A stretch of DNA of 32,000 nt from Telmatocola sphagniphila (GCF_018398935.1 NZ_CP074694.1:570001-602000); one strand, 5' to 3'; positions 745 to 24,824 are shown, numbered from the stretch's first letter. Made by a program: numbers and translations. The notes: generated from the sequence alone by a model not told the origin.

Positions 745-767
745 AAAAAAAGCCCGCCGAAGCGGGC
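745..767 (-). terminator. Rho-independent terminator downstream of the kinase-like gene 788-2413
   Basis: On the minus strand the sequence is GCCCGC-TTCG-GCGGGC, a 6-bp GC stem with a UUCG tetraloop. It is followed directly by TTTTTTT and lies 21 nt after the stop codon at 788. Confidence 0.75.
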
Positions 768-787
768 TCATTATTTGTCTGGGTTAA

Positions 788-10343: not shown

Positions 10344-10368
10344 GGGGAGCCAAGCTCCCCGATTTTTT
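10344..10368 (+). terminator. Rho-independent terminator after 6954-10331
   Basis: The hairpin GGGGAGC-CAA-GCTCCCC is followed by GATTTTTT and begins 13 nt after the stop codon. Confidence 0.7.
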
Positions 10369-10978
10369 ACTTGGCCAGATTCTTGAATTTGATGTTCTTG
10401 AAAATCACTTCCATAGGATTGCCCGCATGGATTTGCAGGGCGATCACACCGGCGGGAGGTAATACTTCAAATTCCTGATCGACGGTGGTGACGCCGTTGA
10501 TTTTGATGGTCACTTTTTTGCCGACCACTTTGATGTAGTAATCGTTGAAGTCATCCGGCTTGAGCACTGTACTCACATCGTCCCATTTCGAAGCCTTCAG
10601 CATACCTTCCTTCATGCCTTCTCCATACAGGCTACCCCAATAGCGGTCGCCCATATCGCATTGAGGACCTTTGACTTTGAATTTTTCTTTGTCGAAAATT
10701 TCGCTGCGAATCTGCACGCCGCTGTTGCCGGTCCACTTGGTACCCGTGAGTTTCACATCGAAATGCAATTCAAAATCGGTGTACTTGGTTTTCGAGCAGA
10801 AAAAGGTGTTGAAGCCGGGGTTGGCGTCGGTTTTCCCGATGATGCTCGAGCCTTCGAACTTCCAATATTTTTCCAGACCTTCCCAGTTGTCCTTGCTCAG
10901 GAAATCGGGATCGGCCGCTTTCGCAAAAGCGCCCAGCAGGCCGAACAGAGCCAGGGAGCAGAGCAATTTCAATTTCAT
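10367..10978 (-). CDS. DUF1080 (3-keto-disaccharide hydrolase-like) domain protein, secreted
   Basis: The signal peptide is MKLKLLCSLALFGLLGAFAKA. The body contains FELHFDVKL...NSGVQIRS...GVIALQIHAGNPMEVIFKNIKFKNL, as in DUF1080 lectin-fold proteins. I chose the ATG at 10978, preceded by GAGGA; the track start is 11008. Confidence 0.7.
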   Translation of the reverse strand: MKLKLLCSLALFGLLGAFAKAADPDFLSKDNWEGLEKYWKFEGSSIIGKTDANPGFNTFFCSKTKYTDFELHFDVKLTGTKWTGNSGVQIRSEIFDKEKFKVKGPQCDMGDRYWGSLYGEGMKEGMLKASKWDDVSTVLKPDDFNDYYIKVVGKKVTIKINGVTTVDQEFEVLPPAGVIALQIHAGNPMEVIFKNIKFKNLAK

Positions 10979-11134
10979 AGGAGATCCTCGGAGAGTGACA
11001 TTCAGCAAAAGGGCGATAGTCTTGGGTATAGCGGTGCGGTTTGCAATTGGCTAATCCCCTTTTAGCCGATCGGCGGCGATCAGAAATTCACCGACGAAAA
11101 AGTCGAAGGGGAGAAGCAGACAATTTCCAGGGCG

Positions 11135-11887
11135 TCACGCTTCAATTTTGGAGCCGTGAAAGAATTCGGGCGGTCGAACCAGATCGAGGAGAATCGCTTC
11201 ATTTTCGCCGAAGTATAATGCGATTTTCTGCTGTTTGGCGAGTTCCAGCAATGCCAGAAAGAAGCCGATCAAACGCATTTTGGTGCGGGGCGTTTCAAAG
11301 ATCGATTCGAATGAAATCGGCGCCTGTCGATTCAGTCTGGTCAGGATACTATCCTCAAAAAAAGCTTGCGGCATCTCGTCGACGATAGTCTGAGATTCAT
11401 TTTTTTCCTCCCACTCGCGAATGAGCTTCCCGAACGAGTTCAGGAGATCCCAGATCTCCACTTTTTGAAGTGAGGTGGACGCTTCCAGGGATTCTTCCTC
11501 GGGGATCGCCTGGCGGGCGAGTTTTTTGCTTTGCTGCGAGGAAATAATTTCCAGGAGGCTCGCTGCTTTCTTGATGCGACGATATTCGATGAGTTGCTGA
11601 ACCAGAGAGTGCTTTTCCTCCTCGATCGGGCTATCTTCCGTCGATTCGCCGCGCGGCAGCAGTTGCCGACTTTTAATTTCCATCAGGGTGGCGGCAACGA
11701 CCAGAAAGTCTCCCGCCAGTTCGAAATCGAGCCATTTGAGTATGCGGATATGCTCGAAGAATTGATTGGCGATCCCGGCGATCGAGACCTCCCGCAGATC
11801 GATCTCATTCCGCTTCACCAGGTGAAGCAGCAGGTCGAACGGTCCGGTGAAGGTCTGGAGCCGAATTTGAAAATCCGTCGAGTCCAT
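11135..11887 (-). CDS. scpA: Segregation and condensation protein A (SMC-complex kleisin)
   Basis: The 250-aa ORF has the typical ScpA N-terminus, FTGPFDLLLHLVKRNEIDLREVSIAGIANQF. Its ATG lies 18 nt after the stop of the upstream kinase-tubulin-like gene. Confidence 0.8.
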   Translation of the reverse strand: MDSTDFQIRLQTFTGPFDLLLHLVKRNEIDLREVSIAGIANQFFEHIRILKWLDFELAGDFLVVAATLMEIKSRQLLPRGESTEDSPIEEEKHSLVQQLIEYRRIKKAASLLEIISSQQSKKLARQAIPEEESLEASTSLQKVEIWDLLNSFGKLIREWEEKNESQTIVDEMPQAFFEDSILTRLNRQAPISFESIFETPRTKMRLIGFFLALLELAKQQKIALYFGENEAILLDLVRPPEFFHGSKIEA

Positions 11888-11905
11888 GAGGACTTTATAC
11901 GGTTA

Positions 11906-14900
11906 TCATTCGTGAACGTACTCTGCGGAGGATTCGATATCCTCCCACTGCAGAACGTCAAACCGGCAATGCGGATTGGTGCCCATGTGCAGGGAGTTCA
12001 AATAGGCATCCTCCGCAAATGGTCCCGCCTGCGGCAGATAGCGGATAGGTATGCCCGAATATTCCCGGTAGACGTATACCTCGTCTCGCGAAGTCGCGTA
12101 AGCGAAATTCGCCGTCGGAAGTTTGATTTCCCCTTGATCCAGCAGGGCACTCTGAAGTGACTCCGGCATCCCGACGATGCAGACTTCCTGGCCGGTGCAT
12201 ACGGTCACCCGATATTCCGGTTCGGCCTGGAAGAAAAGTTCCTGAAGCGATTCCGATAACGATCCGAAATCCGGAAACTTCTGAGCGTAAATATCCGAGA
12301 AGTCGACCTGGTTCAGCTTCATCAAAATGAACTGACGTGCTTGTTCCTCGACGATTTCCTGTAAAGAAGTCTCCAGCTGCTTATTCTTCTTGGCCGAATC
12401 GACGGCGAGATTGAACTGCTTTTCGATCTTCAACTGCATCTTCTGATCGACTTCCCTCATGTCCTCCGGACTCAACATATCCTTGAAGATATCTATGGCA
12501 TCCTGAAGGGAACCCGCACCAAAGGGCAGCAGCAGCGATCGCGTTTCCGGCAACGTCCCGACGGCATTCTGACGCATCTGACGCAGCAGATCCATCAATT
12601 GCTTGCGGCTGTAGCAAAGTTCCTGATGCTGGGTCAGCAGGCTGCGTTCCGCGCATCGGTAAATTTGAATCATGCTTTGACAGTACATGTACTGCAACCA
12701 ACTGCGAACGTACGTATTCAATGCATCCATCAGCGTCGACGAACGGGTTTTCGTCTGCTCGGAAGTGCTGACGACATTCAGGAAGCGCAGCGCCTGGTTA
12801 GCCCGGGCAAATTGATCGTTCTTCGTTTCGTCCAGCTTGCCACAAATCTGGTTCAGAGTCTGGTGCATCATCTCATTGGCGACGATCGCTCCCGCGAGGC
12901 GGAAATCATATTCGTCCGTCATGCTGGAGGAGATTCCCACGACTTTAGGGGTGAGATCTTTCACCAATAGATCGGTGCGATATTGAATCGCTTTTTCGGT
13001 CTTGGAAAGGCTTGTGGAAACTTGCTTGTCTTCCGGGTTTCCGAAGGCCGAGCGGATTCGAGAAACGACTTCCCAAACCGTCATGGGGTCGGGATCGCGG
13101 GAGAACCAGCCCTTGCTTTGCAGTACGCTGGTTTCCTCTTCCAAAAACTGGCTGATCTGTTTGCCGAGAAGCTTGACAATTTCCGCTTCCAGAACCGCGG
13201 ACAGGTTATCCACGGAAAGCTCGAATTCCGACCAGCGCTGCGAGATTCTCGAGCGTACTTTATCTTCCAATATTCCCGAATCGTTGGAGATCCAGCGGGC
13301 GATGACCGTCTGAGCCAGCCAATCGGACAAATGCTGATGGACCAGTTTGCGAGGCCAGTTGTGGGAAGCTTTTTCGAGCGTCGTGAAGCAGGTGTCGGTG
13401 TTCGTCGTGTCGGTTGTTCGCTGCCGTTGGCGATCGAGATGACGGCCGAAGGGCGAGAACGCATCGTTCATCAAAAGATCGACAATCGATTCCGTACCGG
13501 TCACTTTCAGATCGAGAGAATCGTTCGAATTGCCAGAGATGGAGTTTCCATAGGGGAAACAGTAAAAGCGATCGTAGGGGCTGTGAGTCGGCTTGACGAC
13601 GGAATCGCGTTCGTCGAAGATCGCCGAATAGTTTTCCGGTTTTTGCGTGTAGTGATGCAGTTCCCGAAGGCTGGCATAGCTGTTGGACAGCGCGGTGCCA
13701 TCCAGTTTTTCCCGATCGACGTTCGGAACCTGGAATAAGCCCACGACTTCGGAATCCGGCAGACCCATTTTTTTCAGCTTGTGCTTCACGGCATAGGCAG
13801 CATCGATGAACATGCCACTACCGGTGCCACCGCCCAGACCGGTGGCGATGTAGATTCGCGGCCGATTCGTGCGCAGGCCTAACTGAGTGTGCTTGGCAGC
13901 CTTGGCGAGCGCATCCGGATGGATCGCCTTCAGGATGAAATTCTCAATTTTATCGACGATTGAGCGGTAATGATCGATGAAGGCTACGCGACCAAAGGCC
14001 CGGATCCCCAGCGTTCGAGGCTGACGCGGCAATTTGTAAAGTAATTGCGGATCGAACCAGCCTTCAATAATCGTGCGGCCGTGGCGTCTCGGTTTGAGAT
14101 AGTAGCTGGAACGGTGCAGTTTGGCGTGGATAATCTCCTCTTTGCGGAGATATGGGTAATAGCCTTCGTCTCGGATTTGCTCCATCAGATTCGGATCGGT
14201 GTCCAGAAAGAGCATACGAATATTGGGCAAATTATTCGGAAGGCCATATTCCGAAATCATCTGCTTGCGGAACTCTTTCATGATCTTGAGGCCCGTGCCT
14301 CCCAGGCCGATCATGATGATCGGTCGAATGCAACCATCGCCGGTGATCTCAGGAATGACGATGGGGGACCGGATCATCGAATTGACTTGATCGCCGAAAT
14401 GATCGGTATTGCGAAGATTCGACGCCGGGAAAGGAGTTTCGGAGGTACCCCGCGCGAGTTCACCGAATTTGCAGGATTCTTCTACCTTTTCCTCGGACAG
14501 CAACGCGTGCGGCACAAATTCAACCGGTTCGCCGCGAATGTTCGACAGAGCCTGGATCAGTTCCTTGCAACTGTTGAACCGATTTTCGGGTATTTTTGAG
14601 AGCGCTCGGCCAATGATGGCCCGCTCGTTTGACGGCAACGCGGACAAATTGGGGATGCCGTGCGTATGCATCAGCACCAGCTGCTGAGGATTGACGCCTT
14701 CGAAAGGGCGCGTACCCGTCAGTAATTCCTGGTAAACAATTGCGAGACTGTACTGGTCGCAATACGGGGTGACCATGCCGCGAAGTGTTTCCGGCGCGGC
14801 ATAGACGGGAGTGACGCCACCCGTCACGGCCGATTGCAAACCCTCGAGTTCTTTGACTAACCCGAAGTCGGCCACCTTAACGTGGTTGTGCAGAAGAAAG

Positions 14901-15364
14901 AGGTTTTGCGGCTTTACGTCCAAATGCTGCAACTGATGATTCACATACATCAGGTCCAGAACCTCGGCGGCCTCCGCGAGGTAATTCAACAACTCTTTTC
15001 GCGGGATGCCGGGTTGCTGTTTACCCCGGTACAGTCGATAGTGCTCCCAGAGGTTGCAGTCGGCCAGTTCCATGACGATGAACAGCCGGTTTTCGATAAT
15101 GTCGTAGCGTTCGAGCGAGAGCAGGTAAGGGTGGCGAATCGACTGGATACGTCGAAGCGCTTTCAGTTCCTGCTCGGCATGCCGCAGACTGTTTTGGTCT
15201 TCGAAAGCCGAGGTAGCGATGAGGTTGCCATAAATGATCTTTATGGCTTTATGCAAACCGCCAGGCGCTTCCGCTTTCCAGACTTCGCCGAAACCACCGC
15301 TACCAATGCGCTGGATCAAGCGATAACCGGGTATGGGTTCCGCGTTTTGCTCAATCCTAAGCAT
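11906..15364 (-). CDS. Ser/Thr protein kinase fused to a tubulin/FtsZ-like GTPase domain (paralogue A)
   Basis: The ORF is 1152 aa. The kinase domain (about nt 14540-15325) has GSGGFGEVW, AIKII, HLDVKPQN, DFG and YAAPE. The tubulin-like module (about nt 13565-14329) has IIMIGLGGTG (14291-14308), LFLDTD and IYIATGLGGGTGSGMFID, with GGGTGSG at 13814-13834. This matches the tubulin signature [SAG]GGTG[SA]G. The remaining 550 aa or so have no motif I recognise. Confidence 0.85.
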   Translation of the reverse strand: MLRIEQNAEPIPGYRLIQRIGSGGFGEVWKAEAPGGLHKAIKIIYGNLIATSAFEDQNSLRHAEQELKALRRIQSIRHPYLLSLERYDIIENRLFIVMELADCNLWEHYRLYRGKQQPGIPRKELLNYLAEAAEVLDLMYVNHQLQHLDVKPQNLFLLHNHVKVADFGLVKELEGLQSAVTGGVTPVYAAPETLRGMVTPYCDQYSLAIVYQELLTGTRPFEGVNPQQLVLMHTHGIPNLSALPSNERAIIGRALSKIPENRFNSCKELIQALSNIRGEPVEFVPHALLSEEKVEESCKFGELARGTSETPFPASNLRNTDHFGDQVNSMIRSPIVIPEITGDGCIRPIIMIGLGGTGLKIMKEFRKQMISEYGLPNNLPNIRMLFLDTDPNLMEQIRDEGYYPYLRKEEIIHAKLHRSSYYLKPRRHGRTIIEGWFDPQLLYKLPRQPRTLGIRAFGRVAFIDHYRSIVDKIENFILKAIHPDALAKAAKHTQLGLRTNRPRIYIATGLGGGTGSGMFIDAAYAVKHKLKKMGLPDSEVVGLFQVPNVDREKLDGTALSNSYASLRELHHYTQKPENYSAIFDERDSVVKPTHSPYDRFYCFPYGNSISGNSNDSLDLKVTGTESIVDLLMNDAFSPFGRHLDRQRQRTTDTTNTDTCFTTLEKASHNWPRKLVHQHLSDWLAQTVIARWISNDSGILEDKVRSRISQRWSEFELSVDNLSAVLEAEIVKLLGKQISQFLEEETSVLQSKGWFSRDPDPMTVWEVVSRIRSAFGNPEDKQVSTSLSKTEKAIQYRTDLLVKDLTPKVVGISSSMTDEYDFRLAGAIVANEMMHQTLNQICGKLDETKNDQFARANQALRFLNVVSTSEQTKTRSSTLMDALNTYVRSWLQYMYCQSMIQIYRCAERSLLTQHQELCYSRKQLMDLLRQMRQNAVGTLPETRSLLLPFGAGSLQDAIDIFKDMLSPEDMREVDQKMQLKIEKQFNLAVDSAKKNKQLETSLQEIVEEQARQFILMKLNQVDFSDIYAQKFPDFGSLSESLQELFFQAEPEYRVTVCTGQEVCIVGMPESLQSALLDQGEIKLPTANFAYATSRDEVYVYREYSGIPIRYLPQAGPFAEDAYLNSLHMGTNPHCRFDVLQWEDIESSAEYVHE

Positions 15365-15425
15365 ACGACACCAGGGGGATTAATATGGTCACGTAAACTT
15401 TCACCGGGGGACAAACAAATTTAGA

Positions 15426-18400
15426 CTATGAAAGCGATTCTGCAAATAATTCGGGCGAGCTACCTTCGCCGTTTCTAGGATCGTCAAAACCCTTAAACCA
15501 GGCAAAGTCCGTGCGACTGAACAAAAATTTATCCTGGGGCAGTATTCGAGAAGGATTATTTTCCCAGTATCCAAAATAAAGCCGGCCCGCCGCGAATTTT
15601 TGTTCGCAGGAAAGAACGATATCGTGTTCCGACGGATAATCAGTCCAATGAACTTCCGAAATCACATCGGCTAACAGGGCCTGAAAATTCGCTTTCGAGG
15701 GGGAGTTCGGTAAGCCCAGGAAGTGCATGGTGGTGCCTTCGGGTAATCTTCCGGTCAACATTGTCTGCGAGAGCTCGTCGAAAGCCCTCTGAATTTCCCG
15801 GTGGAGCAGTTGGGGATCGCGGCCCTCGCTCAGGAACATTTCCACGGAAGAGCTGACCGGCAGGCGCGTTTCGGCCAGGGCGAGCAGTTCTTCGCGAATC
15901 AGTTTCAGGAAGCGATCCTTGTATTGCATTTTCTGCAGGCAGACCTTTACCAGCGCGGAGCATTCCCGGCGGATGCGAACCTGCAAACGCTCATCGAGAG
16001 CGTCCCAATCGTTCTCAGAGATGGATTGGATAACGGAATCGGAGGCTTCCTCGATTTCCTTCGATTTACCCGGCAGGATGTGCAATTCCAGAAATTGTCT
16101 GGTTTCAGGCGGTTTAGAGGCTTTCCGGATCTCTTCCAGCATCTCGCGAGATTGCTCTTTGCAGAAGTTGATGTCTCGGGTGAATTCCGGCAGAATCCCT
16201 TTCCAGCTTTGCAGTACGCACTGAAGGGCATACTCTCTCTGGCTTTCCAGTCGAGTATTTACATAGGTGGAAATCAGCTCGCGAAGTTCCGAACGCGGGT
16301 CGCTGCGGCGTACGCTCAACTTGGGCCCGATGTTATCCAGATTGCCGATAAAATTCAGCATGCGATCGTAGCGGCTCTCCAGCTCGGAAGCGTTTTTGTG
16401 CAGTAACTGCTTGATTTGTTCGATCGTTTCGGTGAGTTCCTGATCGATTCGCTTGAGGAATTTCAAGGAAAACCCAAATCGCTTCGAAGGCATTTCGACC
16501 AGTTGAACGACCATTTCCGACAATCGCTTCTCGGTTTCTTTGGCCAGTTCCTTGAAACATTCCGCAAAGGCACGCTTGCTGGGATGGTCGTCGCCCGAAC
16601 CGGGGGAGCCCACGATTTGAACCAGAGGTTCAATCAGGTTGCAGCATTCGATTTGACTGATTTGTCCGCGTCCTTCGCCGATCGCCTTTTCCGTCTCAAT
16701 CAATTTGTCGAAGATCGAGTATCCCAGTCGGACAGTCAGTTTTTCATCGAGTTGTTTGCGCAGCGAATCGTTATCGAGCCGCTTTTTCTGCAGAAATTCT
16801 TTGGTGAATTGAATCACTTCGGTGCTGTCGGAGCTGGATTCGGTTTCGATCCAGCGATTCTGCAATTGCAGCGTCAGCCGGCCGAGGGAATCCTGAAGTA
16901 ATCTCTGACGGGGCCAAGTCAGCCGGACCGAGGCGACATTGCGGTAAGGATTCGGCACGTCGCGCTTGCGCAGCTCGCCTTCAAACCGGGATTTCCCGAG
17001 GTTGGTAAAACCTTCCTGAATGAGAGTTTCGGAGAGTACTTCGAGGTGTCGAGTCGTCGCACTCTTCACTCCGGTTTTTTCCACCGGATGGAGAGTGATC
17101 GAATCGAACGGCCGCTCGCTGTCGGTAAAAGGCTCTTCCTTCAGCGAATATACCGCCCGGAAAGTCTCTTTGCCGGACATGAAAGTGTCGATTTCCCTCA
17201 GTGCAATCAACGGTTTTTCGAGTTGCAAAGAGTTTTCGTTGGACCAGAGCGAACGCGGCAGGAAGAAGTGGGCCGACACGCGATTCGGGTCGTAACCGAC
17301 CTTCCGCAGCTCCTGCTTCAGCATATACGCCAGATCGAGGGCAATCCCGCTACCGGTTCCCCCCATCAGCGAGCCGACGATGTAAACCCGCGGGAATGTA
17401 CTTCGCAGTCCCAGGCCTTTCGCGCCGGAGATATCGCCGCCTTCGGTATCCCGCATCACCTTTTTCAGCATGCGGCCGAATTTCAACTTCACGGCTGCCT
17501 GATGATCGAGAAGACTCAGTCGGCCCAGAGCCCGGACGCCCATGGTCCCGCCATCGCGGGGAATCTTGTAAAGCAATTCGGGATCGTGCCATTGCTCGAC
17601 AGGCGGAAGTAGAGTCTGCTTAAGGTAGTGGGCCGGGCGATGCAGGCTTAAATGCAGCGTTTCTTCCTTGGAAAGCTGAGTATCCGAGCGATAGGAAGAA
17701 CTGGCATCGATCTCCTGAGAATCGGTGTCGAGAAGCAGATATTGAACGTTTGGCAGCTTCTCGTCCGGGAATTTCTCGCCCAGTTGCTTCTTGATCTGTC
17801 GAATCGAAGCCGCACCGTAACCCCCAATGCCGATGATCAGCATCGGGAACAGAATCCCTTTATCTCTTTTCTCGCTCAACGCCCGCAATTGACCCAGGTT
17901 CTGTGAAGAGGGGGGTAGCGAGGGAGAAGGAGGGGATAGGCTCTGCGAATCCTCCGGTTTGCGTTGTACCGGCGTTTTGAGCTTGGGAACCAGCCGCAAG
18001 GTTTGAGAACGGATCGGCTGCAAGGTCAAAGCAGAAGCGGTCGAGGGAGGTGGTTCCAGTTCGCCCGGCTTGGAGGAGTCGCGTGTTGGAGTGTCGCCGC
18101 TGGGAACCAGGGAGATTTTCGGGGCAACCTCGGGAAGCGAATTTCGCTTGGCCGACTTTAAAGCGCGTACCAGGTCCCGACAAGTGGGATAGCGATCATC
18201 CGGTGTTTTCGAGAGGGCCCTCAGAATGATGGGTCTCTCTTCTTCCGAAAGGCTACTGACGTTGGGAACGGCCGACAAATGCTGCATCATGAGATTGCGA
18301 ACATTCGTTCCACTGAAAGGCCTTTCACCGGTCAATAATTCTTGATAAACAATCGCCATGCTGTACTGGTCGCAAAAGCGGCTGACCCAGCCTTCGAACG

Positions 18401-18968
18401 TTTCCGGAGCGGCGTACAATGGCGTGACGCCGCCGGTCATGGTCGCGCGAATTCCCTGGAGGTCCTTGGCCAAGCCGAAATCGGCCACCTTGATGTGATT
18501 ATAAACCAGAAACAGGTTTTGCGGTTTAATGTCGAGATGCTGCAGTTGGTACTGCTCGTTCATCAAATCGAGAGCCTCGGCCGTTTCCTCCATGTAGGCA
18601 ATGAGTTCATCCCGGGGAATCCCCCGTAACTCCTGTTTGCGGCATTCCTGATAGCGATCCCAGAGATTGCGATCGGCCAACTCCATCACGATCAGCAACT
18701 GACCTTCGACGATATCGAATCGTTCCAGAGAAAGTACGAACGGATGCCGGATGGTCTTGACGCGGTTGAGCGCTTTTAATTCCTGCTCGGCCGACTTATC
18801 CTCGGAACAGGCATTTTCTATGTCCCCATAAACGAATTTAATTGCCTTGAGAATTCCACCGGGGGCCTCGCATTTCCAAACTTCCCCGTATCCGCCTCGG
18901 CCAATTCGCTCAATGAGGCGGTATCCCGGAATAGGTTCGCCGGCATTTATGCTGGGTGAAGCCGCCAT
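15426..18968 (-). CDS. Ser/Thr protein kinase fused to a tubulin/FtsZ-like GTPase domain (paralogue B)
   Basis: The ORF is 1180 aa and collinear with paralogue A. The kinase domain (about nt 18159-18926) has GRGGYGEVW, AIKFV, HLDIKPQN, DFG and YAAPE. A Pro/Ser-rich linker follows (about nt 17853-18158). The tubulin-like module has LIIGIGGYG (17814-17831), LLLDTD and VYIVGSLMGGTGSGIALD, with GGTGSG at 17346-17363. Confidence 0.85.
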   Translation of the reverse strand: MAASPSINAGEPIPGYRLIERIGRGGYGEVWKCEAPGGILKAIKFVYGDIENACSEDKSAEQELKALNRVKTIRHPFVLSLERFDIVEGQLLIVMELADRNLWDRYQECRKQELRGIPRDELIAYMEETAEALDLMNEQYQLQHLDIKPQNLFLVYNHIKVADFGLAKDLQGIRATMTGGVTPLYAAPETFEGWVSRFCDQYSMAIVYQELLTGERPFSGTNVRNLMMQHLSAVPNVSSLSEEERPIILRALSKTPDDRYPTCRDLVRALKSAKRNSLPEVAPKISLVPSGDTPTRDSSKPGELEPPPSTASALTLQPIRSQTLRLVPKLKTPVQRKPEDSQSLSPPSPSLPPSSQNLGQLRALSEKRDKGILFPMLIIGIGGYGAASIRQIKKQLGEKFPDEKLPNVQYLLLDTDSQEIDASSSYRSDTQLSKEETLHLSLHRPAHYLKQTLLPPVEQWHDPELLYKIPRDGGTMGVRALGRLSLLDHQAAVKLKFGRMLKKVMRDTEGGDISGAKGLGLRSTFPRVYIVGSLMGGTGSGIALDLAYMLKQELRKVGYDPNRVSAHFFLPRSLWSNENSLQLEKPLIALREIDTFMSGKETFRAVYSLKEEPFTDSERPFDSITLHPVEKTGVKSATTRHLEVLSETLIQEGFTNLGKSRFEGELRKRDVPNPYRNVASVRLTWPRQRLLQDSLGRLTLQLQNRWIETESSSDSTEVIQFTKEFLQKKRLDNDSLRKQLDEKLTVRLGYSIFDKLIETEKAIGEGRGQISQIECCNLIEPLVQIVGSPGSGDDHPSKRAFAECFKELAKETEKRLSEMVVQLVEMPSKRFGFSLKFLKRIDQELTETIEQIKQLLHKNASELESRYDRMLNFIGNLDNIGPKLSVRRSDPRSELRELISTYVNTRLESQREYALQCVLQSWKGILPEFTRDINFCKEQSREMLEEIRKASKPPETRQFLELHILPGKSKEIEEASDSVIQSISENDWDALDERLQVRIRRECSALVKVCLQKMQYKDRFLKLIREELLALAETRLPVSSSVEMFLSEGRDPQLLHREIQRAFDELSQTMLTGRLPEGTTMHFLGLPNSPSKANFQALLADVISEVHWTDYPSEHDIVLSCEQKFAAGRLYFGYWENNPSRILPQDKFLFSRTDFAWFKGFDDPRNGEGSSPELFAESLS

Positions 18969-19514
18969 TTCTAATGATCCCTGAACGTACAGCCATCCAG
19001 GAACGCGGGCTGCGACTATCCCGGATGATTCCTAAATATAGATCACGAATTATAATCGGGACTGAACGAGCAGTAGAAATCCGCTAAAAGGGAGTTTACT
19101 CCGGAGATAATTTTGGCTTTATAAAAATGCCGGTCCCATCTCCTTCGCTCTGCCCTGGGGCGCAAATTTCATCCCAGATCAAAACGGTCAGGTTATCTGA
19201 GTGGTCATCGGGGATACTTGGTAGAACTTTGGATCCTAGATTTCTCGAGGCGACCCCGGAGAAAGAATAAGAGGTCGGATTCACACGATAGCCTTGCCAC
19301 GCTATCCCTTTCACATGGACATTTTGGGAACACTTCGCTTAGGGTGATTGTCCGTAACAACATCCTCGCTCGCTGCGAAGGCCGTTTGAAAAGCATTCTG
19401 TTCAATCCGGTTTTAAACGACGCGGAAGGATGGTTTTGTTTTCCAGACTCCGAAATTCCTTTCGTTTCACCGATATAAAAAGAATGGGAGTTTCTTCGAA
19501 GTCCGAGACGATTC

Positions 19515-20204
19515 ATGAAGCCGAAAACGATCCAACTGCTGGTCAGCGTGCAAAATGCTGAAGAAGCCGCACTGGTTATGGACTTGGGGGTCGATTGCAT
19601 CGATATTAAAAATCCAAGCGTGGGTTCGTTGGGGCGACCTACTTTCGAAGTCGTGGACGAGGTGGTTAATCTCGTTGCCGATAAGGTGCCCTTAAGCGCC
19701 GCACTGGGAGAGTTCTCCGAAGAACACGATACTCTGGATGTTCGGTTACTGAAATTGCCACTGCGTTATTTGAAGTGGGGCTTGAGCAAACTCGGCTGGC
19801 CAATGCCTTTTGTCAATCACGTTCGCGAGGTGAACGGCTTTGGGCGGATGATCGGGGCCGCATACGCGGATGCTAAAATCTGCGATGCTCCCTCCTTGCC
19901 TAAAGTCGCCTGTCTGGCCAGCCGGTTGAATGCCCCGGTGTTCCTGATCGATACTTTTCAGAAGGATGGTCGATCGCTTTTCGCCCATGTATCTGTGGCG
20001 GAGATCGAACACCTTCGCGAAATGGCTTTCTGGGGAGATATGGAACTGGCCTTGGCCGGCTCCGTGAAGTGGGAAGAACTGCCCGAGATCAAACGAATTC
20101 GTCCCAATTGGCTGGCCGTGCGAGGATTAGTCTGCCAGGAGGGGGATCGCAGAAAGCCAATTGACCCGGAACGGGTAAAACGCTTGAAGCAACTTCTCAA
20201 TTGA
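19515..20204 (+). CDS. mfnB: (5-formylfuran-3-yl)methyl phosphate synthase-like protein (MfnB/DUF556 family, methanofuran biosynthesis)
   Basis: The 229-aa ORF has LLVSVQNAEEA...GVDCIDIKNPSVGSLG, YLKWGL, AAYADA, LIDTFQKDGRSLF, ALAGSVKWEELP and VRGLVCQEGDR. This parallels the archaeal MfnB layout as I recall it, including the D.KNP Schiff-base lysine context. Confidence 0.7.
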   Translation: MKPKTIQLLVSVQNAEEAALVMDLGVDCIDIKNPSVGSLGRPTFEVVDEVVNLVADKVPLSAALGEFSEEHDTLDVRLLKLPLRYLKWGLSKLGWPMPFVNHVREVNGFGRMIGAAYADAKICDAPSLPKVACLASRLNAPVFLIDTFQKDGRSLFAHVSVAEIEHLREMAFWGDMELALAGSVKWEELPEIKRIRPNWLAVRGLVCQEGDRRKPIDPERVKRLKQLLN

Positions 20205-21872: not shown

Positions 21873-24647
21873 ATGAGCCGTTATCTAGTCGGAATCGACT
21901 TGGGAACCACCAATTCCGCGCTTGCCTACATCGATCTTCAGAGTAAATCCCGTAAAGGCGTAACCATTCAGCACTTTCGGGTTCCTCAGTTGGTGGGTAT
22001 CTCGCAAGTTGTCGAACGGCCTCTTCTTCCTTCCTTTCTCTACATCCCAGGGGAATTCGATCTGCCGCCGGGCGCACTCAATCTGCCTTGGACGAACGAG
22101 CAGAAATTCGCCATTGGCGAATTTGCCCGGGATCATGGCTCGAAGGTGGCAGGACGACTGATTTCCTCCGCCAAGTCCTGGCTCTGCCATCCGGGTGTCG
22201 ACCGAACGGCCCCGCTACTTCCCTGGGGAGCCCCGCCGGACATCCAACGATTTTCTCCGCAGGAAGTTTCTCGCAGATATCTTCGGCATTTTGTCGATGC
22301 CTGGAATAGTACAGTTGCCAAATCGGACGTGGAGAAACTGGAAGAGCAGCAAGTCGTCATTACCGTACCGGCCTCTTTCGACGACGTCGCCCGAAACATC
22401 ACACTGGAAGCCGCCAAACAGGCCGGCTTCAAAAATATCCGGCTGCTGGAAGAGCCGCAGGCCGCTTTTTACTGCTGGATGGGGATGTCTTCACCGTTGG
22501 AAATTCAACGGGTCGGCCCGGGCATGCAATGTGTAGTAGTGGATGTCGGCGGCGGCACTACCGATTTTAGTCTCATTCGGGCCGGGGAGGATACTGGAGA
22601 GCTCTCCTTCCAGAGAGAAGCCGTGGGGGACCACTTACTGCTGGGCGGCGATAACATGGACTTGGCTTTGGCTCGGGAGGTCGAGCCGACGCTCACTGGA
22701 TCGAGTAAGCTGGATGCAACCCAGTTCGCCATGCTCATTCAGGCCTGCCGTAAAGCCAAGGAAACGCTTCTTTCGGAAAATCCCCCAGAGAGTGTCCCCG
22801 TCACAGTGATTGGCCGTGGCCGTTCCGTAATTGGTGGCACGTTGACTGCTCAGTTGAAGAAAGAGCAGTTGCAAAAGTCTTTACTCGATGGCTTTTTCCC
22901 TGCTGTGCCAGTTGATGCAGAACCCGTCAAATCGAATCGGCACGGCATCCAGGAAATGGGTCTGCCCTACGTTCAGGATCCGGCAGTCACCAAGCATCTG
23001 GCCAGCTTTCTGAAAAAACATCTCCCCGAAAATACTCGCCCCGAGGCCATTCTCTTCAACGGCGGCGTCTTCACGGCCGGCGTCCTGCGAGATCGACTTG
23101 TGGAAGTCATGAAGGGCTGGTACGGAGAAGAGTGGAATCCGATTCAGCTCTCTACACCTTCGCTGGATCTTGCAGTCGCTTACGGAGCCGCCTATTCCGC
23201 CTGGCTGCTGCACACCGGTGGTAAGCGTATCGGGGGCGGTATCCCGCGTTCTTACTACCTCGGGATCGAAACCGATCAATCGATTGAAGAAAATCAGGCC
23301 AAATCGGTCCTTTGCGTCATTCCCCGTCGAATGCAGGAAGGGGAGACCATCGAACTGACAGAACCGGTCCTGGAGTTGTCCCTCGGCCAGCCCGTGCTGT
23401 TCCCCTTGTACAGCTCAACTGTTCGTGGAAAGGACAAAGCTGGGCAAATTGTCAAAATCAAGCCGGACCAACTCCTTCAATTACCACCGGTGCATACTCA
23501 GTTGCGCGGCGGCAAACGCAGCGGAGTGAAACAGGTTCCGGTAACTCTGGCGGCTCGCTGCACGGAGATCGGTACGCTCGAGCTATTCTGTATCGGCAAG
23601 GAAAAGGAAAATCGCTGGCGGCTGGAGTTCAATGTTCGCGATGCCGGTTTTAACAACGAGGAAGAGGCCGAGGAGAAGACTACTGCGGAATTCTCCGAAG
23701 TCCTTCCCGAAACTGTAGTTGCAGGCGCCATGGACACCGTCACCGAGACGTTTTCGAATCCGGAAATTGATGCTCGCGAATTGACCAAGAAACTCGAAAC
23801 GGTTCTGGGAGAATCCCGATCCGATTGGGCGATGCCGGTCTGTCGGCGCATCTGGGGGAAGCTGGAAGAGCTGGCCAACAGTCGATTCCTATCGCCCCAG
23901 CATGCTTCCCGCTGGTACAACTTGGCGGGCTTTTGCTTGCGGCCTGGCTTTGGCGATCCTCTGGATCGCTATCGGGTGGAATCTTTGTGGAAAATCGCGA
24001 CCACGCCCTCCGCACAAGGGGCGGTTTTCGATTCCGGCGCTGATTTCTGGATTATGATGCGGCGGGTGGCCGGGGGATTACCTTCGGGACTTCAGTTGAC
24101 GCTCTGGAATCGGTTGCGGCCGGTGCTGATCGCTTCCAAGGGGAAATCTCAGCCCAAACCGGCGGCGAACGAACTGGTGGAAATGTATCGAACGGCCGGT
24201 AGCCTGGAACGACTCGATACGAAGGTGAAGGATCAACTTGGTTCGAGTATTCTGGGACAGCTTTCCAAGGCCAGTTCGAGCGGGCATTTGCTGTGGGCGC
24301 TGACTCGTCTGGGAGCCCGTCAGTTGCTTTATGGTCCGATCAACTCGGTTTTGCACCCTCAGATTGTCGAAAAATGGGTCGAGCAATTGCTCCTGCTACA
24401 ACCGAAGAACGATGCGGAGAAGGTGAACTGGGCCTTCTGTCTGGCTCAATGGGGCCGGCGAACGGGGCAGCGGTCGATCGATCTTTCCGAGGATACGCGA
24501 AACAACATCCTGGCGGTCTTGCGGGATATGAAGATTCCCGAGCACTGGATTCAGATGGTGGAGGAAGTGTCGGTTCTGGACTCGGCGGAAAAATCTCAAC
24601 TGTTTGGGGAGTCGCTGCCGATCGGGCTGAAGCTGGCGGGGGGATAA
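21873..24647 (+). CDS. Atypical Hsp70-family ATPase with a long C-terminal extension
   Basis: The 924-aa ORF has these Hsp70 NBD motifs: VGIDLGTTNSALAY, VITVPASFDDVARNITLEAAKQAGF, RLLEEPQAAF, VVVDVGGGTTDFSLI, LGGDNMDLAL and ILFNGGV. After a beta-rich middle region, about 300 C-terminal residues match nothing I recognise. Confidence 0.8.
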   Translation: MSRYLVGIDLGTTNSALAYIDLQSKSRKGVTIQHFRVPQLVGISQVVERPLLPSFLYIPGEFDLPPGALNLPWTNEQKFAIGEFARDHGSKVAGRLISSAKSWLCHPGVDRTAPLLPWGAPPDIQRFSPQEVSRRYLRHFVDAWNSTVAKSDVEKLEEQQVVITVPASFDDVARNITLEAAKQAGFKNIRLLEEPQAAFYCWMGMSSPLEIQRVGPGMQCVVVDVGGGTTDFSLIRAGEDTGELSFQREAVGDHLLLGGDNMDLALAREVEPTLTGSSKLDATQFAMLIQACRKAKETLLSENPPESVPVTVIGRGRSVIGGTLTAQLKKEQLQKSLLDGFFPAVPVDAEPVKSNRHGIQEMGLPYVQDPAVTKHLASFLKKHLPENTRPEAILFNGGVFTAGVLRDRLVEVMKGWYGEEWNPIQLSTPSLDLAVAYGAAYSAWLLHTGGKRIGGGIPRSYYLGIETDQSIEENQAKSVLCVIPRRMQEGETIELTEPVLELSLGQPVLFPLYSSTVRGKDKAGQIVKIKPDQLLQLPPVHTQLRGGKRSGVKQVPVTLAARCTEIGTLELFCIGKEKENRWRLEFNVRDAGFNNEEEAEEKTTAEFSEVLPETVVAGAMDTVTETFSNPEIDARELTKKLETVLGESRSDWAMPVCRRIWGKLEELANSRFLSPQHASRWYNLAGFCLRPGFGDPLDRYRVESLWKIATTPSAQGAVFDSGADFWIMMRRVAGGLPSGLQLTLWNRLRPVLIASKGKSQPKPAANELVEMYRTAGSLERLDTKVKDQLGSSILGQLSKASSSGHLLWALTRLGARQLLYGPINSVLHPQIVEKWVEQLLLLQPKNDAEKVNWAFCLAQWGRRTGQRSIDLSEDTRNNILAVLRDMKIPEHWIQMVEEVSVLDSAEKSQLFGESLPIGLKLAGG

Positions 24648-24824
24648 CTCCCTGGATTTCTTCTTGTCTCGAGGATTTTTACGGTTCAAATTGCCCGACC
24701 AGCTTGGCCTGTTGAAGGCTAACAAAGGAATTCAGCGGATTTGACTCTTGTGTGAACTGATTCTCGTGCAAAAGCTCAAACTGGATCTGAATTCGAACCT
24801 CGTCACTAGCTAGAGTGTCTGCAA

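Follow-up and report, generated by a model that had tools for sequence, protein, structure and literature searches.

The 32,000-nucleotide (nt) stretch analyzed here, hereafter the window, covers positions 570001–602000 of the complete, single-contig 6.59-Mb genome of Telmatocola sphagniphila (GCF_018398935.1, NZ_CP074694.1), a member of the family Gemmataceae in the order Gemmatales. It contains two long neighboring genes, B and A, each encoding a Ser/Thr kinase fused to a tubulin-like domain, followed by scpA, the gene for the kleisin of the condensin Smc-ScpAB. An earlier reading of the window from the sequence alone had proposed that the three genes are co-transcribed and that the kinase-tubulin pair acts on or with the chromosome condensation machinery. 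The coordinates of the open reading frames (ORFs) agreed with its description of three minus-strand genes separated by 61 and 18 nt. In transcriptional order, the features are as follows.

15426–18968, minus strand: gene B, 1180 aa, Ser/Thr kinase and FtsZl1/Tubulin_2 fusion, first gene of the probable operon
15365–15425, minus strand: B–A intergenic gap, 61 nt, fold z = +0.31, terminator-like site absent
11906–15364, minus strand: gene A, 1152 aa, Ser/Thr kinase and FtsZl1/Tubulin_2 fusion
11923–11953, minus strand: strong RNA hairpin in the last codons of A, T-tract absent, not a canonical terminator
11888–11905, minus strand: A–scpA intergenic gap, 18 nt
11135–11887, minus strand: scpA, 250 aa, sole kleisin of Smc-ScpAB in the genome

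A terminator scan of the B–A and A–scpA gaps found no hairpin followed by a T-tract, as the sequence-only reading had stated, and folding gave nothing terminator-like in either gap (z = +0.3 for B–A). This absence is informative because clear terminators of the hairpin-plus-T type are present at other gene ends in the window (750–769, 10344–10360, and 24637–24654). The cluster B-A-scpA thus combines a common strand, short gaps, and no intervening terminator, an operon-like arrangement. The 18-nt gap without a terminator makes it likely that A and scpA are co-transcribed, and co-transcription of all three genes is probable, although with less assurance. A scan for sigma-70 promoters gave counts at or below those expected from shuffled sequences; planctomycete promoters are not covered by such a scan. 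A strong RNA structure lies within the coding sequence of A. The 101-nt segment 11860–11960 (minus strand) folds with −36.5 kcal/mol (z = −4.07), and none of 200 shuffled sequences was equally stable. Its hairpin (CUGC..GGAGGAU-AUCGA-AUCCUCC-GCAG) lies approximately 15 nt before the stop codon of A. It could act in RNA processing or stability, or attenuate the expression of scpA.

The scpA product matched PF02616 (SMC_ScpA; 7e-30, 105 bits) across positions 1–218 of the 232 in the profile, the ScpA models of NCBIfam with E values reaching 1e-46, yet with scores below the equivalog cut-offs, and solved ScpA structures in the PDB (3w6j, 5e-23; 3zgx, 2e-19; 4i98, 7e-18). The whole genome contains one scpA (this copy), one smc at 4.32 Mb, which encodes the one SMC hinge protein in a 1216-aa frame, and two scpB genes on the plus strand at 184429–185331 (~142 bits) and 1135740–1136447 (~187 bits), approximately 0.4–0.55 Mb from scpA. 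Both partner subunits, Smc and ScpB, are therefore encoded in the genome, and scpA codes for the canonical kleisin of Smc-ScpAB.

The sequence-only reading also drew attention to the lack of an scpB gene behind scpA. To place this lack, 80 scpA loci, each with 10-kb flanks, were collected throughout the phylum from named genomes that represent Gemmatales, Planctomycetales, Pirellulales, Phycisphaerae, Brocadiia, and unclassified groups. Among the approximately 74 planctomycete loci in this sample, scpB adjoined scpA in none; it directly followed scpA only in four outgroup loci (Bacillota, Verrucomicrobiia, Omnitrophota, and Nitrospira). The lack of scpB is thus real at this locus but is not peculiar to it. 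In 41 genomes from eight families of the class, the number of scpB matches per genome was two in 34, at least three in five, one in one, and none in one. Two unlinked scpB paralogs against one scpA are thus the rule across the class. As a side observation, two scpB genes per genome suggest a heterodimeric ScpB 'kite' in Planctomycetia, in place of the usual homodimer.

The gene upstream of scpA varies widely in the phylum. A same-strand upstream gene was present for 58 of 94 planctomycete scpA genes, and lay within 60 nt in 34 of these cases. The partners encountered outside the present arrangement were trpS, DUF1559, GlgC, MetE-like, DUF1501, and SucD genes. The trpS gene (tRNA-synt_1b) was found upstream of scpA in at least 10 loci of Pirellulales and Phycisphaerae and also in the Omnitrophota outgroup locus, and trpS-scpA is probably the older context of scpA. 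The trpS-scpA loci noted were L054, L059, L065, L067, L073, L076, L082, L083, L089, L104, L106, L111, and L125. Dispersal of the condensin genes is a trait of the phylum, in which scpA is commonly found behind a gene of unrelated function.

Both kinase-tubulin proteins gave strong matches to the two Pfam domains: A matched Pkinase with 4.2e-33 (115 bits) and Tubulin_2 with 1.8e-44 (153 bits), and B matched them with 1.4e-34 (120 bits) and 7.1e-34 (118 bits), respectively. In the kinase domain of B, the catalytic lysine and the HLD-K-P-x-N, DFG, and APE motifs are all intact. Across 47 homologs, the G-loop, the AIK lysine, the alpha-C glutamate, H-L-D-x-K-P-x-N, DFG, and APE are invariant; by these motifs the domain is classed as a non-RD kinase. 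The residues of the GTP-binding signature (G512, G515, and D521) are likewise invariant across the 47 homologs. The T4 loop reads GGGTGSG in A, which is canonical, and MGGTGSG in B, whereas it is degenerate in a third paralog of the genome (paralog C) and in the protein of the Gemmataceae genus g62.

The AlphaFold model of A (predicted local distance difference test score, pLDDT, 85.9) displayed the kinase (residues 1–275), a disordered linker of ~50 residues (281–330), a Rossmann-type GTPase domain, an all-helical region of ~370 residues (672–1046) with two long helices (822–867, 46 residues; 875–934, 60 residues), and a small alpha/beta domain at the end (1059–1126). A fold search with full-length A was dominated by kinases, and the kinase-less part (residues 335–1152; pLDDT 88.3) was therefore modelled separately. 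Foldseek matched this part to gamma-tubulin, tubulin, and FtsZ with E values of 7e-6 to 5e-4, a probability of 1.0, and template-modelling (TM) scores (target) of 0.35–0.51. The model thus supports a tubulin/FtsZ fold for the GTPase core of A. A sequence search against the PDB with the tubulin-like and C-terminal parts of A gave no match.

These features correspond to the FtsZl1 family, which was defined in 2010 by an FtsZ-like GTPase core, a GGGTG(S/T)G loop, an extended coiled-coil, and a helical C-terminal domain (PMC2875224). An extended coiled-coil followed by a helical C-terminal region is found in the model of A. Four planctomycete members bear an additional N-terminal protein kinase (Makarova & Koonin 2010, PMC2875224), and in Planctomycetota, a phylum that lacks FtsZ (PMC11032199), cytoplasmic Ser/Thr kinases have the tubulin-like domain as their most frequent partner (Odelgard et al. 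2024, PMC11032199). A role in membrane remodelling has been proposed for FtsZl1, and filament formation is regarded as uncertain (PMC2875224). The nearest homolog of A among 5.8 billion proteins is just 46% identical, placing the genome on a long branch; homologs of A are annotated by NCBI as 'tubulin-like domain-containing protein' (Gemmataceae bacterium / Fimbriiglobus sp.). The records of three homologs of A (P0014, 804 aa; P0025, 826 aa; P0059, 986 aa) show the Tubulin_2 and C-terminal parts without a kinase domain, and these may be kinase-less members or truncated gene calls. Paralog C, a kinase-Tubulin_2 protein of 1162 aa with a degenerate GTP-binding loop (GGSS-G), is encoded at 1803864–1807352 of the genome. 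It occurs in most of the sampled genomes of both Gemmatales families (L128–L167) and forms one well-supported clade. In many cases, the next gene is convergent and conserved (cluster c17).

We then compared the order of the kinase-tubulin gene (hereafter KT) and scpA among relatives, scoring a genome as positive when scpA is immediately preceded by a KT gene of the same orientation. The score was based on tblastn hits or forced ORFs, so that a small intervening gene can escape it. Many of the relatives are fragmented metagenome-assembled genomes. The first sample comprised 40 relatives, mostly one per genus. KT genes were present in 39 of 41 genomes, with two to four paralogs in 39 of 41 relatives. 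The KT-scpA order was found in 8 of the 21 informative Gemmataceae genomes of this sample, but in none of the 15 genomes of the sister family (f2), which have KT genes, nor in the single genome of a third family. A second sample, mostly of further genera, gave 22 of 57 informative Gemmataceae genomes, with 450–1600 nt between the tblastn hits in four of the positives. Pooled, the order was present in 30 of 78 (38%) informative genomes of the family. Of seven contigs with A homologs, drawn from metagenomes and other assemblies, five also had it, and two of these (L168 and L171) match the window exactly, with mfnB divergent and then B, A, scpA, and a DUF1080 gene.

Among the phylum-wide loci, KT-scpA was confined to L051 (the same as G082) and L057, both from Gemmataceae. 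L057 was considered as an independent origin of the order and rejected, as it belongs to the genus g62 of this family and keeps the same mfnB block. Genomes of g62 are small and have a single, very diverged KT gene, which lies 4–13 nt before scpA in five of seven of them. The order proposed for examination across Planctomycetota by the sequence-only reading thus recurs within Gemmataceae, but it was not found in the sister family or at any locus sampled outside Gemmataceae.

The spacing of the two genes is also variable. The KT-scpA junction spans −4 to 37 nt in seven genomes, and the B–A gaps of relatives are 100–340 nt. In four other relatives (G016, L051, G001, and G013), the KT-scpA gap is 96–590 nt. 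The gaps of G016 and L051 contain 30-bp perfect palindromes, that of G001 contains a tandem repeat of the 7-mer CCACTGA, and that of G013 (L018, 3412–4003) contains a kinase-domain fragment, the remnant of another copy.

Phylogenetic trees of 62 KT proteins and of 105 ScpA sequences (21 of 101 branches well supported in the latter) provided insight into the history of the arrangement. In the KT tree, paralog C is represented by one copy per genome in each of the two families, and never lies near scpA. The A and B clades stem from a tandem duplication within Gemmataceae, B of the window falls in the B clade, and some genera have a single A/B-like gene. Eight of the 13 A-clade orthologs are followed by scpA, and in G001 a B-type gene retained scpA after the loss of A. 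In the ScpA tree, the adjacency is present in all three major Gemmataceae subclades and requires 19 changes, of which at least five are forced by well-supported branches, compared with a mean of 31 for shuffled states. The simplest reading is that the Gemmataceae ancestor already had KT upstream of scpA and that many losses followed, because independent re-creation of the same adjacency is improbable.

Whether this retention is distinctive was assessed with the other neighbors of the block and with control gene pairs. The flanking features of the cluster are as follows.

11009–11134, minus strand: scpA–DUF1080 gap, 126 nt, without a canonical terminator, fold z = −1.0
10367–11008, minus strand: DUF1080 / 3-keto-disaccharide-hydrolase-like gene, 213 aa, PF06439 with 3.3e-28
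10344–10360, no strand assigned: GC-rich hairpin where the DUF7133 and DUF1080 genes converge, at which the minus-strand unit likely ends
18969–19514, no strand assigned: upstream region of B, 546 nt, presumed promoter region, containing the remnant of an ASCH gene
19515–20204, plus strand: mfnB (4-HFC-P synthase), PF04476 with 2.6e-52, divergent neighbor of B

The hairpin at 10344–10360 reads GGGGAGC-CAA-GCTCCCC and is followed by TTTTTT on the plus strand; the T-run on the minus strand is weaker (TTCTT). The transcription unit may extend through the DUF1080 gene to this hairpin. The mfnB gene, of methanofuran biosynthesis, belongs to the same inherited syntenic block and served as an internal control. 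It lies divergently beside a KT gene in nine genomes of the first sample and in six of the seven metagenomic contigs, often together with a small ASCH gene, and the mfnB-KT pair persists without scpA in three genomes from which scpA has departed (G006, G017, and G019) and in two contigs with no scpA (L173 and L174). In 12 other Gemmatales genomes, including two of the sister family, an ortholog of the DUF1080 gene is found no more than 1.5 kb behind scpA and in the same orientation. With 55–65% identity, it is conserved more strongly than ScpA. The copy of L168 (L168:9111–9716), which is the closest relative, overlaps scpA by 4 nt. The gene called unrelated by the sequence-only reading does lie 126 nt downstream of scpA, but it is a recurrent, conserved neighbor and not a random one. 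The loci with this order include L170, L171, L009, L014, L030, and L033, and a 265-aa gene of unknown family stands between the two in G002 and G008. DUF1080 is the most frequent periplasmic partner domain found with Ser/Thr kinases of planctomycetes (PMC11032199).

As controls, we scored two arbitrarily chosen tight co-directional pairs of the window, a small sample of pairs, in the same 40 relatives. The order NagB/PIG-L to DUF2203 was retained in 14 of 28 cases and SDR to a P-II-like gene in 15 of 29, whereas KT to scpA was retained in 8 of 36. The KT-scpA order is thus not conserved beyond that of ordinary neighbors. Conservation is not specific to scpA here, as mfnB and DUF1080 are kept similarly and the control pairs are kept more often. 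Gene order does not demand a functional link between the KT proteins and condensin; the scatter of condensin genes throughout the phylum accounts for the missing scpB, and ordinary retention of an inherited block accounts for the conserved order.

We weighed the readings of the locus against each other. In the one that we favor by a modest degree of confidence, B-A-scpA, perhaps with DUF1080 up to the hairpin at 10344–10360, would be a co-directional cluster inherited from the Gemmataceae ancestor, and its transcription would most likely start upstream of B and yield a single unit. In that ancestor, scpA would have come to sit behind a kinase-FtsZl1 gene beside mfnB, and this gene would later have been duplicated in tandem to give B and A. 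The housekeeping kleisin gene would be expressed by read-through from the kinase-FtsZl1 genes, a co-expression that requires no biochemical connection between the KT proteins and condensin; elsewhere in the phylum, too, scpA is usually a short distal gene just behind an unrelated one (trpS, sucD, glgC, and others). We infer that a functional link between the KT proteins and condensin is absent. Several points weigh against this reading. A very stable hairpin (z = −4.1) occupies the final codons of A just before scpA, and the 96–590-nt gaps in four relatives leave room for separate transcription there. In addition, the control pairs may themselves be functional operons, and retention of the order over ~30 genera, with identities of ~35% for the A/B proteins and ~40–45% for ScpA, is compatible with selection for a functional link.

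The first two of these points bear on a different reading, in which the genes are syntenic without being co-transcribed: scpA would be driven by a separate promoter, located in the gap or within the 3′ end of A, and a promoter for A might lie in the 61-nt gap. The wide KT-scpA and B–A gaps of relatives and the hairpin at the end of A speak for it. Moreover, scpA has been relocated many times and still functions, and hence can acquire or carry a promoter, and an internal promoter would be possible in a genome whose promoters the sigma-70 scan does not cover. On the other hand, the 18-nt gap here and the junctions of −4 to 37 nt in six other genomes leave room for a promoter only inside the coding sequence of A, terminators of the hairpin-plus-T type are absent from the gaps although the organism uses them elsewhere, and the hairpin in A has no T-run. 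We regard separate transcription as rather unlikely.

A true functional module is also unlikely in our view. Here the kinase-FtsZl1 proteins would act on or with Smc-ScpAB, and the operon would serve to express them together with the kleisin. Their substrates might be ScpA, ScpB, or Smc, or they might form a GTP-dependent scaffold positioning condensin or the nucleoid in budding cells without FtsZ. The same-strand adjacency has persisted in ~38% of the genomes of the family despite deep divergence, and it has outlasted the tandem duplication, the disappearance of A from G001, and the genome reduction in g62. The invariant catalytic and GTP-binding residues of the 47 homologs and the tubulin/FtsZ fold suggested by the model of A would fit such a role, as would the absence of FtsZ from the phylum (PMC11032199), and mycobacterial Ser/Thr kinases phosphorylate the segregation protein ParB (review PMC7174722). 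However, retention is no higher than that of unrelated neighbors or control pairs, and the adjacency was lost at least five and up to 19 times with both genes persisting. It is missing from all 15 KT-bearing genomes of the sister family and from every sampled locus outside Gemmataceae, and paralog C never lies near scpA.

The ScpA proteins themselves also count against such a module. Among those compared, no residue or linker feature diagnostic of the KT adjacency was found: the best alignment column (glycine in 14 of 37 against 1 of 45) was phylogenetically clustered, and the central linker has the same length and the same Ser/Thr content whether or not scpA stands behind a KT gene. In addition, the literature searched yielded no link of ScpA to Ser/Thr kinases or FtsZl1, and the role proposed for FtsZl1 is membrane remodelling, with an uncertain ability to form filaments (PMC2875224). 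Phospho-regulation of Smc-ScpAB or a nucleoid-positioning filament, the two mechanisms offered by the sequence-only reading, are conjecture. The most specific version of the module, a kinase-FtsZl1 pair that is a dedicated heteromeric GTPase/kinase regulator or scaffold, phosphorylating or positioning the Smc-ScpAB complex, with the operon matching their expression, appears quite improbable. That the pair belongs to an anti-phage defense or mobile island and lies beside scpA by chance, as matches of PADLOC and NCBIfam to the defense kinases mad6, PD-T4-6, and PglW might indicate, is very improbable, since these matches span the generic kinase domain only (residues ~10–285), the KT family is vertically inherited in stable clades with two to four paralogs in most relatives, and the flanks are housekeeping genes without a compositional anomaly.

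Comparison with known systems placed A and B in the planctomycete subgroup of FtsZl1/Tubulin_2 (PF13809), with which they share the kinase, the GTPase core, the GGGTGSG loop, the coiled-coil/helical region, and the C-terminal domain. The typical operon partners of FtsZl1 are a vWA protein, a P-loop GTPase, and an OmpA-like protein, whereas the neighbors of A and B are mfnB, scpA, and DUF1080; none of the typical partners was found at the locus or in the loci of relatives inspected. For the FtsZl1 family as a whole, GTP-dependent polymerization is uncertain (PMC2875224). The trpS-scpA(-scpB) type of locus likewise has scpA as a short distal gene, a few to tens of nt behind an unrelated same-strand gene, but the upstream partner here is a kinase-FtsZl1 pair confined to Gemmataceae, and scpB follows only in non-planctomycete loci. 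The Bacillus subtilis-type scpA-scpB operon is matched by the ScpA profile and structure hits and by the presence of Smc and ScpB, but differs in that the genes are dispersed here, with two unlinked scpB genes and one scpA per genome across the class. Phosphorylation of mycobacterial ParB is a precedent for the proposed kinase mechanism, although it concerns ParB and not a kleisin or Smc (PMC7174722), and that review itself describes phosphorylation of segregation proteins as backed by limited evidence.

The kinase-FtsZl1 fusion family has been known since 2010, and its relatives are annotated as tubulin-like. In the literature searched, no paper tied ScpA to Ser/Thr kinases or FtsZl1, operon data on this locus from Gemmataceae were not found, and a proteome paper on Tuwongella mentions none of these proteins; the recurrent KT-scpA neighborhood in Gemmataceae appears to be unreported there. 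Planctomycetes divide without FtsZ, and their kinase-fused FtsZl1 proteins have no known function. The recurrent proximity to the sole kleisin gene is so far the only genomic-context hint for these proteins, and is a legitimate but weak lead to their function. If the pair were a dedicated condensin regulator, this would be the first functional assignment for FtsZl1 and a new kind of control of a bacterial condensin. Our analysis lowers the expectation of such a link, and it provides a calibrated baseline for gene-order arguments in Gemmatales, with ~50% retention of tight co-directional pairs.

Two minor observations concern the surroundings of the cluster. The 546-nt stretch between B and mfnB contains a decayed ASCH-domain gene, whose last 25 codons lie at 19432–19506 on the plus strand. 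The remnant was detected by tblastn with the ASCH proteins encoded between mfnB and B in L168, L172, and L174 (60% identity over 25 aa, E = 8e-7); its frame differs from that of the sole ORF there, and the N-terminal part has left a faint trace in another frame. An intact ASCH gene lies just upstream of mfnB in L168, L172, L174, and G022. Further along the window, at 21873–24647 on the plus strand, lies a gene for an Hsp70-like protein of 924 aa, which ends in a DUF3731 ('DnaK-related') domain. Its orthologs (55–56% identity) lie near the scpA block in G001 and G023, so that it belongs to the same loosely conserved neighborhood.

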